A stretch of DNA of 64,000 nucleotides from a virus. The position numbers and the translations under genes are program-made. The DNA is taken from positions 32,001 through 96,000 of the IMG/VR virus record IMGVR_UViG_3300031673_008942. One strand, given 5' to 3'. Under the pieces are notes generated by a model that saw only the letters and a list, made by a program, of their open reading frames with translations, was not told the origin of the DNA and ran no database searches. Every line of letters starts with the position of its first letter. Position 1 is the stretch's first letter. This document shows positions 31,841 to 41,084 of this stretch, piece after piece.

Positions 31841-32943
31841 GTCTTAGCGAACAAGAAATTGCTCGTTACAAAGACATAGAGTGGTTGATGCCTCATGTGG
31901 ACGTGGAGGATGTTCTAGACCGCTTGGGTGTTGAGCATGGACATGAGCGAAATAGCGAAATAATGGCCTTTTGCCCTGACCATGAACATCATACAGGAAA
32001 TTCTCCAAGTCATCCTAAATGGGGTTTAAATACTGATACGGGAAAGACCTATTGCTTTACTGAAGACCGAGGTAGTAATTTGGTTTTCACGATTTGTAGA
32101 GTATTGGATTGTGGGGCTGATGCTGCGGTAAGTTTTATGACTGGTAGCGATGTGACGAATCTAAGGGCTTCTGGTTTGAAGGGTAGAATATCCAAGCTTA
32201 GGCGTAAAGATGTAAAAAAGAGAAATGCTGAAGAGCCAGGCGAGGTATGGGGGTTGGATAAGATTCAAAAGGATTTGAACAATCGTCCAGTTTCAGACCA
32301 TTTATATGATTTTTTCATGCAACCTCCAGGGAAGCCTCCAAGCAATATTGTACAGAATACCGTGGATAGGTTTGGGGTTTTTGAGAGGAGGTGGGGATAT
32401 TATACTAATCGAGCTATCATTCCTTTTTATATGCATGGAAAAATTATCGGTTTTTGTGCTATTGATATGCTTGGGGAGAGGGAGTGGGTGCAGATGCATC
32501 CATTGAAGGACTCATCAGATTATAGGAAGGTATTGTATCCGCAAAATTTCAAATCAAACGAGTGTCTGTTTAATTATGATAATTGTGAAAAAGGGTCGAA
32601 GATTATATTGACTGAGGGGGCACGAGAGGTGATGAAGTTGAGCCAGGAGGGCTTCCCTAATAGCTTGGCAGTGTTGGGTTCTGGTCTGGGAAGCAGTGAC
32701 CCATTGGAGGTTGGGGACTCACAGTTGAGACTTCTGGCAAAATTGGACCCAGAGGAAATCATTTTAATGTTTGACGGTGACAAGGCAGGATATAAAGCTA
32801 CTGAAAAACTGGAGAAAAATCTATCGAGATTGTTTCCAGTTCGTCCGTGTAAATTGTTAAACGATACAGACCCGAAGATGCTTTGTCGTGATGAAATAAA
32901 AAAGATAATAAAAAGTTTTAAATTATCTTGTAATGATTTTTGA
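31837..32943 (+). CDS. dnaG: DNA primase (DnaG-type, Zn finger + TOPRIM)
   Basis: CPDH...YCF zinc-binding region, RAIIPF, LFNYD, TEG, FDGDKAG. Confidence 0.88.
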   Translation: MSLSEQEIARYKDIEWLMPHVDVEDVLDRLGVEHGHERNSEIMAFCPDHEHHTGNSPSHPKWGLNTDTGKTYCFTEDRGSNLVFTICRVLDCGADAAVSFMTGSDVTNLRASGLKGRISKLRRKDVKKRNAEEPGEVWGLDKIQKDLNNRPVSDHLYDFFMQPPGKPPSNIVQNTVDRFGVFERRWGYYTNRAIIPFYMHGKIIGFCAIDMLGEREWVQMHPLKDSSDYRKVLYPQNFKSNECLFNYDNCEKGSKIILTEGAREVMKLSQEGFPNSLAVLGSGLGSSDPLEVGDSQLRLLAKLDPEEIILMFDGDKAGYKATEKLEKNLSRLFPVRPCKLLNDTDPKMLCRDEIKKIIKSFKLSCNDF

Positions 32944-33918: not shown

Positions 33919-34342
33919 TATGAAGATGCATAGCCCAACCCAGGCTATAAAAATGGGTAGTTGTTTTGGTCACTACGATGAAAATGATAAAATTTGTGGT
34001 AAGTGTGTGGTAAACGGGGTGAGTTTCCCTTCTCCATATTCATGTAATGTTGCTACTGCGAAGAGGCAAAAGGCAGAAAGTGCGGGTGTTGAAGACCTTG
34101 AGGACATTGATGCATGGGATTATTTGATGAAGTCCCTTCAGGGTAGGTTGGATTTATCAATTACTAAAAATGATAAAGCTATCAGTTATGATTTTGCAGC
34201 TGATGATGGAACTCACAAAATTCGTGTTATTTCCATGATAGGTTCTGAAAGGGTAATGATAATGGCATCTGGCTTCAAGGAGAAGTATGAGAAGTTAGAG
34301 TCATTGGAATTTGTGGAGAATATTTTAAAGAAATTGCTATGA
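33911..34342 (+). CDS. Hypothetical protein with N-terminal Cys4 motif
   Basis: GAGGT RBS; CFGHYDENDKICGKC-x11-C. Confidence 0.65.
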   Translation: MSDMKMHSPTQAIKMGSCFGHYDENDKICGKCVVNGVSFPSPYSCNVATAKRQKAESAGVEDLEDIDAWDYLMKSLQGRLDLSITKNDKAISYDFAADDGTHKIRVISMIGSERVMIMASGFKEKYEKLESLEFVENILKKLL

Positions 34343-37261: not shown

Positions 37262-37910
37262 TAAGATAGAAATACCTGAAGATAAGGTGGAGAGATTTTG
37301 GGTTTTGGTGCTTATGTTTGCTCAAGAGATGGGTATTGAAGACCACAAAGATGTTTATCATAATGTTGAGCTTTTGGGAAAGAGTGTGGAAAGACACATT
37401 GTTGAAAGGAATCTTCCTATTTCTCCTCAGAAGAAGGTGAGTCGTTCCAGGGCGACGTTTATTGCTATATTTAAGAAGAGGTATTTACAGCTTACAGATT
37501 GTGAGTATACCCGAATCATAACGGCCGCCGAAGGCAAACTTATAAATCAAATAAATAAAAGCCTCCGAGAGAGAGATTTTGATTGTAATGATTATTTAAG
37601 GTGGCTTTTTGAGGATTTTTTACCCGATAATAAGAGACTGTGTCCTCCATCTATTAAGCAGATATGTGCCAGATTTTATGTTGACAAATTTTTCTTTGAA
37701 TATAAAGACGAAGCGAAAGAGCGGAAGACGACCAAGTTGAAACAATCAGAATCTGAGGATTTGGCTAATAGGTGTAGAGCCTTGGTTCGTGGTCCTGCAC
37801 AGAAGATTAAGGATGAGATTCGTAAGGTAGTCTCTGATTATAAAGATGGAAAAATATTTTTAGAGGATTTGCGTAAAAAAGTTGAAACTTGGGAAGGAGA
37901 ATATAAATGA
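37248..37910 (+). CDS. Hypothetical replication-module protein
   Basis: 220-aa ORF overlapping both neighbours. Confidence 0.65.
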   Translation: MNEIDKIEIPEDKVERFWVLVLMFAQEMGIEDHKDVYHNVELLGKSVERHIVERNLPISPQKKVSRSRATFIAIFKKRYLQLTDCEYTRIITAAEGKLINQINKSLRERDFDCNDYLRWLFEDFLPDNKRLCPPSIKQICARFYVDKFFFEYKDEAKERKTTKLKQSESEDLANRCRALVRGPAQKIKDEIRKVVSDYKDGKIFLEDLRKKVETWEGEYK

Positions 37911-38494
37911 GTGATGTGATAAATAATATTGAAAATTCTTGTGACTCGATGGGCACTATTGATTTGTCAGGTATAAAGCTTGAAAGTGCGGACCCTCGTC
38001 TTCTGGATGTGGGAGAGTTAGATATTGACCGGCATGTTGCCATGCAACCATCCGCAATGGCTTATTATGGTTCTTTGTTAAAAGAGTCTGGTCGAAGTCT
38101 TGGTACTTATAAGAAGGATACGGAAAGGTGGGAAAAGAAACAATTTGCGGTAGCAAAAGCTAATTTGACGGCATCCTCATCTACGAAACCGGTCAAGGAA
38201 GAAGTGGAGGCAAGATTTTATGTTGATAATGAAAAAGAGATTGCCCATAGAGATAAGACTCTGGATGGTCTTCAGAAGCAATATGACCTTCTTTCTGTAT
38301 GGTTTGAAGCATGGAAGCAGAAGGGTTTCAGTATCAAAGAGTATGTTGATATTGGCGAGAATGAGCGATATAGCGTGAATGCTAGTCTTAAGGAAAAAAA
38401 TGTGGGAAATGCGATTACTCCTGAAAAGAAAAAGAAGATACGGGATATAATAGGTAATAAGAAAAAGCGTCCTCATGGTGGGGTCGAGAATTAG
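37907..38494 (+). CDS. UvsY-like recombination mediator
   Basis: Helical protein (QPSAMAYYG...EEVEAR...KQKGF) directly upstream of SSB and RecA. Confidence 0.55.
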   Translation: MSDVINNIENSCDSMGTIDLSGIKLESADPRLLDVGELDIDRHVAMQPSAMAYYGSLLKESGRSLGTYKKDTERWEKKQFAVAKANLTASSSTKPVKEEVEARFYVDNEKEIAHRDKTLDGLQKQYDLLSVWFEAWKQKGFSIKEYVDIGENERYSVNASLKEKNVGNAITPEKKKKIRDIIGNKKKRPHGGVEN

Positions 38495-38547: not shown

Positions 38548-39597
38548 ATGTCAGTACTTGACAAAATTGCGAAGTTGAAAGAACGGGCTCCCAAGAGGAA
38601 CAATTCTAGAATGAGCGGTATTTTCCATGATTATGAAGATGGGGATAATATCCTCCGATTAGTGGGAAATTTTGTAGAGGTTAGCACCCATTTTATTGCT
38701 CCGGTACCTAAGCGGAAGGAGCGTGGACTGTGTCAGGAAGATGCTTTTCAGGGTGACAATAAGATTCCAAAAGTAATCAATTGTCTTGATTGGGATTTGG
38801 AGAAGGAAGAAAAGCGTAAGGTTAAGGTTTGCCCTATTTGCAAACTTAATAAAATTTCTTACAAGATAATGGATGAAATAGAAGAAGAAGTTGGTGGTAA
38901 GGATAAGCTAGATGATATTGACAATGCAGAGCTTAAAAAGCAGTATGATAATTATAAGGCTTTGGCTTCTCTTGCTCGTGCTCGTACATATTTGAAGTGG
39001 AACGTTATCGACCGTGATAATCCAGAGATTAAGATAACATCCGAGGATGGGAAGGAAGAGAAAAAGCTTGGTTTGAAGATTGCAACAGTTGGCTCTGAAG
39101 CTTGGGGGGATATTGAAGGCATTTTTGACCAATGTGGTATCGACATTACTGACCCTGATGATGGTATTGATATTTGTGTCAAGAAAGGGCATAACGGTGC
39201 TCGTGTAGCTTACAGTGCTCAGGCTGTGATTGAAGGAACTGGCTTGAAGACTACTCCTTTTACGGCTGAGGAGAGGGCGTTGGAAGAGCATAATATTTTA
39301 GCCATTTGTGGCAAGCAGACTGATGCTGGTTTGGTTCTTGATGGGCTTCATGGTGATTACCGTGAGCTTTTGGACCTTAATGATGAGGGGGCTGAAGTTG
39401 CTGAAGTTGCTGAAGTTGCTGAAGTTGCTGAAGTTGCTGAAGTTGCTGCTAAGGAAGAACCTAAAGTTGAGACTAAAGTTGAGGCTACTCCTAAGAAAGC
39501 TGTGGCTGAAAAGTCCAAGGAAGTTTCTGTTGATGACGTCGAAGAAGATGACGAATTCGATGACTTCCTTGATGGTGATGACGAAAAAAAAAATTAA
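38548..39597 (+). CDS. Single-stranded DNA-binding protein, T4 gp32-like, with acidic tail
   Basis: GDNILRLV, THF, C...CPIC, NVIDR, DITDPDDG.DI.VKK; acidic DDEFDDFL tail; GAGGT RBS. Confidence 0.75.
   Translation: MSVLDKIAKLKERAPKRNNSRMSGIFHDYEDGDNILRLVGNFVEVSTHFIAPVPKRKERGLCQEDAFQGDNKIPKVINCLDWDLEKEEKRKVKVCPICKLNKISYKIMDEIEEEVGGKDKLDDIDNAELKKQYDNYKALASLARARTYLKWNVIDRDNPEIKITSEDGKEEKKLGLKIATVGSEAWGDIEGIFDQCGIDITDPDDGIDICVKKGHNGARVAYSAQAVIEGTGLKTTPFTAEERALEEHNILAICGKQTDAGLVLDGLHGDYRELLDLNDEGAEVAEVAEVAEVAEVAEVAAKEEPKVETKVEATPKKAVAEKSKEVSVDDVEEDDEFDDFLDGDDEKKN
39391..39444 (+). repeat. Perfect coding 9-bp repeat GCTGAAGTT x6 (Ala-Glu-Val)
   Basis: Directly visible. Confidence 0.9.
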
Positions 39598-39677
39598 CTC
39601 AACAGCCTAAGTCTAGGGTGGAGGTTCCGAAGAAAGAAGTATCGGAGCCTCTACCCAGGGCTGACGTTTCTGTTGAG
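39584..39677 (+). promoter_or_regulatory. Probable -1 programmed ribosomal frameshift cassette (A10 slippery tract + downstream stem-loop)
   Basis: GAA AAA AAA AAT TAA; CTCAACAG 39598-39605 pairs with CTGTTGAG 39670-39677; inner 15-bp stem 39616-39630 / 39642-39656. Confidence 0.7.
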
Positions 39678-39833
39678 CTTCCTGAGAATCAAGAAAAGTC
39701 CGAATTCAACTGGGAAAATGTTAATCCTGCTGAAGACTGGCCATGTTGGACTGAGTATGATTCCTCTGATTCCGAGTGTAAGGAGTGCCCTTTCAAGGCA
39801 GATTGTTCCAAAGAGGCTGGTGTTCCACTTTAA
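39585..39833 (+). CDS. -1 frame extension of the SSB (Cys4 domain); the ORF track starts it at GTG 39618
   Basis: Frame is open from the A tract: KKKLTQQPKSRVEVPKKE...WPCWTEYDSSDSECKECPFKADC. Confidence 0.65.
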   Translation, partial: KKKLTQQPKSRVEVPKKEVSEPLPRADVSVELPENQEKSEFNWENVNPAEDWPCWTEYDSSDSECKECPFKADCSKEAGVPL

Positions 39834-39851: not shown

Positions 39852-41084
39852 ATGGCAAAAAAAGAATTAAAAAAATTAACTCGTGAAGAACGCATTCAGA
39901 AGATTTGTGAAACTGTCAATAAGGGTCAGTTTGGGGGTGAGAATAAAGATGCGGTAACTTACTTGGGTTCCAGGGAAGTTAAGAAGATTGGTCGTTTTTG
40001 TACCGGGTCTCCAGATTTGGATGCTGCCCTTGGGGGCGGTCTTCCTGTGGGTAGGTTTATTGAATTATTTGGAGCAGAATCTTCAGGTAAGACCACCTTG
40101 TGTTATCACATCATGAAAGAATTTCAAAAAGCTTATCCTGAGGATGAGATTGCTTTGATTGATAGTGAATATGCCTTTGATGAGGTGTATGCTGAGCAGA
40201 TAGGGTTAAATACAAAATATCTTATTGTTAATCAGCCCGAACATGGTGAGCAGGCGATGAATGTAATGGGGCAGTTGATAACTTTAGGGACTCGGCTGAT
40301 TATTGTTGATTCTGTAGCAGGTTTAACAACTAAGGCCGAGATGGAAGGGGAGTATGGGGCTTCTCATGTCGCTCAATTGGCTCGATTGATGAGCAATTCG
40401 TTAAAGAAATTGGCGCAAGCGGCTGGAAGAACCGAGACCACAATCATTTTTACCAATCAGATGCGTGACAAGATTGGGGTGACTTATGGAGACAAGAGTA
40501 CGACTCCAGGGGGTAATGCTTTAAAGTTCTATGCTAGTGTTCGAATTAATCTTAGAAGGATGGATTCCGAGACTGAGACTGTTAATGGGCAAAAGGTTCG
40601 TATTAGTAATAGAGTTCGGGCTGAGGTTAAAAAGAACAAGACTGCTCCTCCATTTCGTAGTGCCGATTTTCATATTACTTTTGGTATTGGGATTGATGAG
40701 GTTGGTGCCTTTTTTACATCAGCTATTACAAAGGGAATTATTGACAAGAAAGGTGCTTGGTTTAGCTACGATGGAGAGAATCTTGGACAAGGTCAGGTTG
40801 CTTCAATTGAGGCTGTTAGGAATAACGAGATTCTGTGGGAGTCAATAAAAAATGCGGTCTTGTCTTGCACTGACGAGGAAGCGGAAACGGAAACGGAAAC
40901 GGAAACGGAAACGGAAGAGCCTGAATCTCCTGAGGAAAAGCCAAAGGCTCCTATTAAGAAACCATCTATTTCTAAGTCTAAGGAAGGAACCAAGGCCAGC
41001 GATTCTGTTGTTGAGAAAGTAGCAGTAGAGGATGATGACTTTGATGACCTTCTAGATGATGATGTCGAGGTTGATGATGTCTAA
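39852..41084 (+). CDS. recA: RecA recombinase with acidic low-complexity C-terminus
   Basis: TGS..LDAALGGGLP.GR, GAESSGKTT, IIVDSVA, IFTNQMR, TTPGGNALKFYAS, KNKTAPPF. Confidence 0.96.
   Translation: MAKKELKKLTREERIQKICETVNKGQFGGENKDAVTYLGSREVKKIGRFCTGSPDLDAALGGGLPVGRFIELFGAESSGKTTLCYHIMKEFQKAYPEDEIALIDSEYAFDEVYAEQIGLNTKYLIVNQPEHGEQAMNVMGQLITLGTRLIIVDSVAGLTTKAEMEGEYGASHVAQLARLMSNSLKKLAQAAGRTETTIIFTNQMRDKIGVTYGDKSTTPGGNALKFYASVRINLRRMDSETETVNGQKVRISNRVRAEVKKNKTAPPFRSADFHITFGIGIDEVGAFFTSAITKGIIDKKGAWFSYDGENLGQGQVASIEAVRNNEILWESIKNAVLSCTDEEAETETETETETEEPESPEEKPKAPIKKPSISKSKEGTKASDSVVEKVAVEDDDFDDLLDDDVEVDDV
40884..40913 (+). repeat. Coding hexamer repeat GAAACG x5 (Glu-Thr)
   Basis: Directly visible. 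Confidence 0.9.

Follow-up and report, generated by a model that had tools for sequence, protein, structure and literature searches.

A candidate −1 frameshift site that would append a four-cysteine module to the gp32-like single-stranded DNA-binding protein of a large uncultured phage

We analyzed the 3' end of a single-stranded DNA-binding protein (SSB) gene in a viral sequence, IMG/VR record IMGVR_UViG_3300031673_008942, within a stretch of 64,000 nucleotides (positions 32,001 to 96,000 of that record) that we refer to as the window. The source record is 113.6 kb long, with an estimated completeness of 34%. An earlier note, made from the letters of the window, had proposed that a programmed −1 frameshift joins a small downstream open reading frame (ORF) with four cysteines, hereafter the Cys4 module, to the SSB. 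The SSB ORF ends in GAC GAA AAA AAA AAT TAA, and its run of ten A (A10; 39584-39593) contains two in-frame slippery heptamers, A_AAA_AAA (39585-39591) and A_AAA_AAT (39588-39594). In the −1 frame, a TGA lies at 39579-81, the open stretch begins at 39582, and the next stop is at 39831-33; because of that TGA, both frames are open across the A run only. The letters thus confirm the SSB end, the A10 run, the first heptamer, and the open −1 frame leading from the run into the small ORF, as the earlier note had described them, and the computed length of the frameshift product, 428 aa, agrees with its estimate of about 430 aa. No other run of at least nine A or T occurs in the 64-kb window. The features of the locus and its surroundings are collected in Table 1.

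Table 1. Features at the SSB locus of the window (window coordinates) and, in the last row, in related loci (locus coordinates).
Feature	Position	Strand	Basis or remark
Upstream gene, weakly UvsY-like (recombination mediator)	37907..38494	+	PHROG 231, E 7.6e-4
0-frame SSB gene, 349 aa	38548..39597	+	ORF listing; PHROG 1192; gp32-like model
−1 frame ORF, 83 codons + stop, linker + Cys4 module	39582..39833	+	Stop-to-stop listing
Slippery site, A10 run + T	39584..39594	+	Window letters; heptamer in all 34 unique loci
0-frame stop TAA, next base C	39595..39597	+	Adjoins second heptamer
Candidate stimulatory hairpin, 80 nt, 28 bp	39598..39677	+	RNAfold of 39594-39685
Cys4 "CFG-type" module, 47 aa, C-x10-C-x2-C-x5-C	39690..39830	+	Alignment of 49; AF2
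Downstream RecA-family recombinase, acidic C-terminal tail	39852..41084	+	Pfam RecA, E 2e-79
Enclosing arms	L006:2700-2760, L027:2480-2535, L061:1350-1410, L062:985-1045, L057:2325-2385, L021:2580-2640, L001:3950-4010		

The slip site is followed by a strong predicted hairpin. The earlier note had placed a stem 6 nt past the heptamer, with an outer helix of 8 bp around one of 15 bp, and RNAfold returned the same structure, made up of helices of 8 bp (39598-39605/39670-39677), 5 bp, and 15 bp (39616-39630/39642-39656). It begins 6 nt past the first heptamer and 3 nt past the second; in cassettes of the dnaX/IS3 type, a stable structure is expected about 5-9 nt past the heptamer. The predicted energy of −43.9 kcal/mol (z −5.42) was equalled by none of 200 dinucleotide shuffles, and no other segment of the same locus folds equally well. 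The sole start candidate of the −1 ORF, a GTG at 39618, is buried inside the 15-bp helix, and a GGTGA element is present upstream of the A run (39574-39578), both as previously claimed. No Rfam family matches the hairpin. Its identification as an intrinsic terminator was ruled out; it lacks a T-tract, and a terminator scan was negative.

The 349-aa product of the 0 frame has a match (E 5.7e-7) to PHROG 1192, whose annotation is "single strand DNA binding protein". It has no Pfam match and does not reach the gathering score of PF08804, and two of 24 SSB homologs match PF08804 weakly (best E 3.2e-6). An AlphaFold (AF2) model built from the 24 homologs has a pLDDT of 81, with a confident core (OB/Zn, approximately residues 21-280) and a tail of residues 281-349 that falls below 50 and is predicted to be disordered; this tail is acidic and ends in DDEFDDFLDGDDEKKN. 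The top six Foldseek matches of the model in the PDB are all T4/RB69 gp32 (E 2.8e-5 to 4.7e-3) and stand well apart from the next ones, with low TM-scores of 0.3-0.48. An SSB profile had no match among PDB sequences, so the kinship with gp32 is visible at the fold level only. H48, C79, C95, and C98 are invariant across the SSB family, and we take this set to resemble the His/Cys3 zinc site of gp32, with a presumed role as ligands. The SSB thus shares with T4/RB69 gp32 its best core-fold match, an invariant His/Cys3 set, and a disordered acidic C-terminal tail, which in gp32-type SSBs is the partner-binding, self-regulating end. It differs in that its sequence similarity lies under the Pfam gathering score, and in that T4 gp32 itself has neither a frameshift nor a C-terminal Cys4 module, both of which are predicted here.

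The linker of the SSB contains a 9-nt tandem repeat, GCTGAAGTT, present six times (39391-39444) and encoding (AEV)6. The 96%-identical SSB P0001 has three AEV copies plus an extra KVET unit, i.e. linker length varies among near-identical phages.

To place the locus within its family, we searched 5.8 billion proteins and found 58 SSB homologs with 41-96% identity. Most of these (49 of 58) stop directly after Lys-Lys; in six, the SSB frame continues into a C-terminal C-x10-C-x2-C-x5-C module, which in three of these follows directly on "KKK". The corresponding DNA was collected as 79 loci from many independent projects, 20 from IMG/VR and 59 from metagenomes (JGI/ENA), and was classified mechanically. 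In 38 loci (34 unique, including the window), the Cys4 module is encoded in the −1 frame by an ORF that overlaps the SSB stop; it is fused in frame in 18 and lies in the +1 frame in one (L049). Another five contigs end less than 160 nt past the stop, all five with an A9-10 run plus stop, and 18 loci leave the contig before the SSB stop. Wherever the downstream sequence is long enough, the module is present. The SSB family is known from metagenomes only; a tblastn search of 50,697 GenBank phage records with the window SSB and a fused homolog found no match.

The earlier note had pointed to related phages for a conserved slippery site, a covarying stem, and an in-frame SSB-Cys4 fusion, and all three occur: slip site, frame, and stem are conserved across a large phage clade, in which the module of the split genes is in the −1 frame in 34 of 35 unique loci, and the 18 fused loci, L008 and L065 among them, are natural in-frame fusions. 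The −1 ORF always opens across the slip site. An in-frame X_XXY_YYZ heptamer is present in all 34 unique −1 loci, 0-9 nt (mostly 0-3) before the 0-frame stop. The slip sites are mostly A7-A10 runs, with A9-10 in 23 loci and A3-A8 or heteropolymeric sites in the other 11. Non-homopolymeric sites include G_GGA_AAC (L033), C_CCA_AAA (L036), and A_AAA_AAC (L003, L005, L034, L042), which means that they are not homopolymer miscalls and are poor sites for polymerase stuttering. In six loci, the part of the −1 ORF that precedes the module contains no ATG, GTG, or TTG. Among the relatives closest to the question of run length, P0001 has the same ...DDEKKN end, hence the A10 of the window is not a one-off assembly slip, and the clade relatives L030 and L026 have their A10 in the same phase as the window. 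The −1 ORF reaches 150-240 aa in L001 (3940-4655), L024, L030 (1900-2626), and L050 (850-1308), where two or three double-zinc-ribbon (Pfam DZR-like) repeats precede the terminal Cys4.

Two loci differ from their family in run length. L043 (1965-1974) has A10 where its sisters have A9, which makes an in-frame fusion, and L049 (960-990) has A9, one short of the A10 that would match the family pattern, which leaves the module in +1. These may be real polymorphisms or homopolymer miscalls.

RNA structure downstream of the slip site is enriched across the family. For each locus, the 75 nt after the last heptamer were folded and ranked against all 75-nt segments of the same locus; they were among the best 5% in 20 of 34 loci and among the best 25% in 28 of 34. 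Statistics across loci are inflated by relatedness, and the Fisher combined p of ~1e-29 for downstream structure therefore overstates independence. RNAalifold found compensatory double changes in 9/24, 7/23, and 5/14 pairs in three alignable subclades, in a region that is also protein-coding. The most stable 75-nt segment of the linker has a median z of −3.46 in frameshift-type loci vs −1.47 in fused loci (Mann-Whitney p 0.0015). Slip site and stem also trade off against each other (p 0.0035): a strong stem (percentile at most 0.086) accompanies all 11 sites that are short (at most A8) or heteropolymeric, while six of the 23 A9-10 loci, all of them A9, have no downstream stem. This trade-off is consistent with ribosomal frameshifting at heptamers that are weak by themselves; on long runs, transcriptional slippage or a high intrinsic slipperiness may play a part.

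In the six stemless A9 loci and in L001, short complementary arms (e.g. GGCTCA..TGAGCC, CACTCA..TGAGTG) enclose the slippery run and the stop. The statistics of this enclosing helix are weak (Spearman −0.36, p 0.035), and the helix cannot exist during slippage because the ribosome occupies the site.

A midpoint-rooted tree of the SSB core (50 rows; quick maximum likelihood) places the fused state in basal groups, and the frameshift state forms a large, deeply diverged clade with few fused exceptions. One of these, L043, differs from its frameshift sisters only by A10 instead of A9, and a −1 shift or an inserted A would imitate exactly this change. The tree suggests that fusion came first and the split later, an order that depends on a root placed by midpoint only.

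The Cys4 module is itself a conserved unit. In the window, its Cys codons start at 39744, 39777, 39786, and 39804. An alignment of 49 modules shows C19, E29, C30, C33, and C39 to be invariant and "CFG" nearly so, with the consensus CFGTIDPxHxECKxCxxxxxCAxKAG; the copy in the window is somewhat divergent (CWTEYDSSDSECKECPFKADC). The AlphaFold model is a small, mostly helical, confident fold (pLDDT 87.6) with no beta-knuckle. The module has no Pfam family, no sequence match in the PDB, and no fold match by Foldseek or VIA-align, and a search of the ESM Atlas returned only clusters of "hypothetical protein". A profile search of 1.84 billion representatives found 105 cluster representatives, of which 73 are ORFs of at most 160 aa ("orphans") with arbitrary called starts. 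Another 18 are 300-460 aa long, the length expected of fused SSBs, and their identity as SSBs is assumed from that length. The module is also found at the C terminus, often in tandem, of cellular-looking proteins with HEAT and cNMP-binding, TPR, Mrr_cat and TPR, or SAP domains (P0101, P0109, P0132, P0157, P0139).

Metal binding by the module is putative, and "Zn" as a label for it is an assumption. Its C-x2-C-x5-C spacing recalls the [4Fe-4S] motifs of the EndoIII/MutY loop and of WhiB, which we take as a likeness of spacing; the first spacer is 6 in EndoIII and 10 in the Cys4 module. Because the model is helical, unlike zinc ribbons, and the spacing recalls [4Fe-4S], we do not call the module a zinc finger. 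The Cys4 profile has a weak second match in the window at 33959-34012 (E 0.007, profile positions 18-35), in a helicase/UDG region, and this is probably a mere CxxC stretch.

The SSB gene lies between a weakly UvsY-like gene and a RecA-family recombinase gene (Table 1), and UvsY-like and RecA/UvsX-like neighbors are a further feature shared with T4/RB69 gp32. Together with the structural model, this indicates that the window gene is a gp32-like SSB within the recombination/replication module of a large phage. The acidic tail of the RecA-family recombinase, DDDFDDLLDDDVEVDDV, resembles the SSB tail DDEFDDFLDGDDE, and the two tails may compete for one partner. Across the window, the guanine-cytosine (GC) skew is strongly positive all along, at 0.26-0.34 per 8-kb block, and the GC content is approximately 40%.

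Given this anatomy and its conservation, we consider recoding of some kind at the 3' end of the SSB gene to be highly probable, and programmed −1 ribosomal frameshifting of the dnaX/IS3 type is the likely main route in the window. Most ribosomes would stop at the TAA at 39595, releasing the 349-aa gp32-like SSB with a free, disordered acidic tail. The 28-bp hairpin, and probably the adjoining stop as well, would hold up some ribosomes over A_AAA_AAA / A_AAA_AAU, and these would slip back by one base and read 80 more codons. The resulting isoform of ~428 aa would have the same core and acidic tail, followed by a linker and the C-terminal four-cysteine module, with the predicted junction peptide ...DDEKKKLTQQPK or ...EKKNLTQQPK. 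RNA polymerase may in addition add one A on the A10 run, which would lead to the same long protein. The Cys4 module would give a subset of the SSB an extra binding surface, or it would cap the partner-binding acidic tip. The ribosomal nature of the shift, as opposed to a transcriptional one, is our inference, as are its efficiency and the role of the long form.

The SSB is of the gp32 type, whose members destabilize helices, and T4 gp32 represses its own mRNA. By analogy, the frameshift could act as a sensor, with free SSB binding the A-rich slip region or melting its own stem so that the ratio of isoforms reports exposed single-stranded DNA in the infected cell, and the Cys4 module could in addition hold [4Fe-4S] rather than zinc. 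We offer this as a speculation that is improbable as it stands.

Several observations weigh against ribosomal frameshifting as the main route. Transcriptional slippage can be efficient on a run as long as A10, and six A9 loci are stemless, so the ribosomal route may be neither universal nor exclusive. To our knowledge, A_AAA_AAU is not a classic bacterial heptamer. The upstream Shine-Dalgarno (SD)-like signal is weak: anti-SD pairing at positions −17 to −11 averages −3.3 vs −1.4 kcal/mol in the background, is variable, and is confounded by the Gly codons that it overlaps. The covariation comes from three subclades, and the nearest relatives of the window, L030 and L001, differ downstream. Finally, both isoforms are predictions from sequence and comparison. 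If slippage were instead mainly transcriptional, the polymerase would stutter on the T10 template, some mRNAs would carry an extra A, and the ribosome would read them unshifted. Runs of at least nine A are indeed slippage sites, e.g. in Thermus thermophilus dnaX (PMC5009743), and this route would suit the A10 of the window, the 23 loci with A9-10 and particularly the six without stems, and the genomic variants with one A more (L043) or one A fewer (L049). However, the 11 loci with A3-A8 or heteropolymeric sites still obey the 0-frame X_XXY_YYZ pattern, and a downstream stem cannot act on a polymerase that has yet to transcribe it, yet the stems are enriched, covary, and are strongest with short runs, and the window's own stem is among the strongest. 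We regard transcriptional slippage as rather unlikely to be the main route. Because relatives have non-homopolymeric heptamers, frameshifting is supported over both pure transcriptional slippage and assembly error.

If the run were an error of assembly or sequencing, the genome would in truth have A11, and SSB and Cys4 would be one plainly fused gene. Homopolymer miscalls do occur, and L043 (A10, fused) and L049 (A9, +1) are single-base variants within frameshift clades, but the same −1 offset recurs in 34 unique loci from many unrelated projects; with the end shared by P0001, the A10 phase shared by L030 and L026, and the existence of non-homopolymeric sites, such an error is hardly credible. 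The same two length variants (L043 with A10 vs A9 in its sisters, L049 with A9 where A10 is expected) could reflect phase variation at the DNA level, in which slipped-strand mispairing during phage replication would produce genomes with either the short or the fused form. This would leave the heptamers without runs and the conserved stems unexplained, and the length that requires a frameshift is the consensus in nearly all assemblies, which makes phase variation as remote an explanation as a miscall. The small ORF could also be a gene in its own right, with translation beginning at GTG 39618 or through termination-reinitiation; gene callers routinely predict such ORFs, and 73 of the 105 module matches are orphans of at most 160 aa. 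Yet this GTG is inside the 15-bp helix and has no usable SD spacing, six loci have no start before the module, the starts of the orphans are arbitrary, and the −1 frame in 34 of 35 loci and the natural fusions also speak against it. A search for promoter-like sites found none specific to the small ORF. An independent gene is thus very improbable. Termination-reinitiation and stop-codon readthrough were ruled out on account of the wrong frame and the lack of a start codon close to the stop.

The proposed ribosomal frameshifting at the SSB gene has counterparts in known systems. With Escherichia coli dnaX (A_AAA_AAG, hairpin, SD-like element), it shares a replication protein, two isoforms, an A-rich heptamer, and a hairpin a few nt 3', and in both there are lineages with long A runs where polymerase slippage could give the same outcome (A9 in Thermus thermophilus). 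The gene families are unrelated, an upstream SD stimulator is not clear in the window, and while the dnaX shift meets a stop almost immediately and its product loses domains, the shift in the window would add one. The closest architecture is OrfA-OrfAB of the IS3 family (IS911/IS150/IS3), with an A_AAA_AAG-type heptamer beside the upstream stop and a downstream hairpin or pseudoknot (PMC5009743). As proposed for the window, the downstream ORF in these elements does not start translation by itself and is made solely as part of a trans-frame fusion; the IS3 product is a transposase, whereas the trans-frame part in the window is a small putative metal-binding module on an SSB. The tail chaperone G/GT of lambda (G_GGA_AAG) is likewise a conserved phage −1 shift with a fixed ratio of short to extended product, and L033 uses the similar G_GGA_AAC, but G/GT is a structural-module gene of another family and function, usually without a strong downstream stem.

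Phage frameshifts are textbook examples for tail chaperones and are known in a few capsid and other genes, while the standard example for replication is cellular dnaX. The earlier note had called a frameshift in an SSB unusual, and this holds for the literature searched: no description of an SSB frameshift was found there, and it is absent from the Atkins 2016 review (PMC5009743) and the PRFect paper. The mechanism is thus of a known kind, and its use in a phage SSB, conserved across large uncultured phages, is undescribed in that literature.

Present gene calling breaks these genes up, yielding an SSB plus dozens of mini-ORFs that are arbitrary and labeled "hypothetical". The family also defines an uncharacterized Cys4 module that extends to cellular HEAT/cNMP, TPR, Mrr-TPR, and SAP proteins. 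Within the family, short heptamers with strong stems vs A9-10 runs without stems form a natural comparison that could help separate ribosomal from transcriptional slippage. For the phages, the Cys4 extension would give a sub-population of the SSB an extra or altered interaction, and the conservation of the arrangement through deep divergence, in phage contigs of 130-340 kb, points to a need for both free and Cys4-capped acidic tails.

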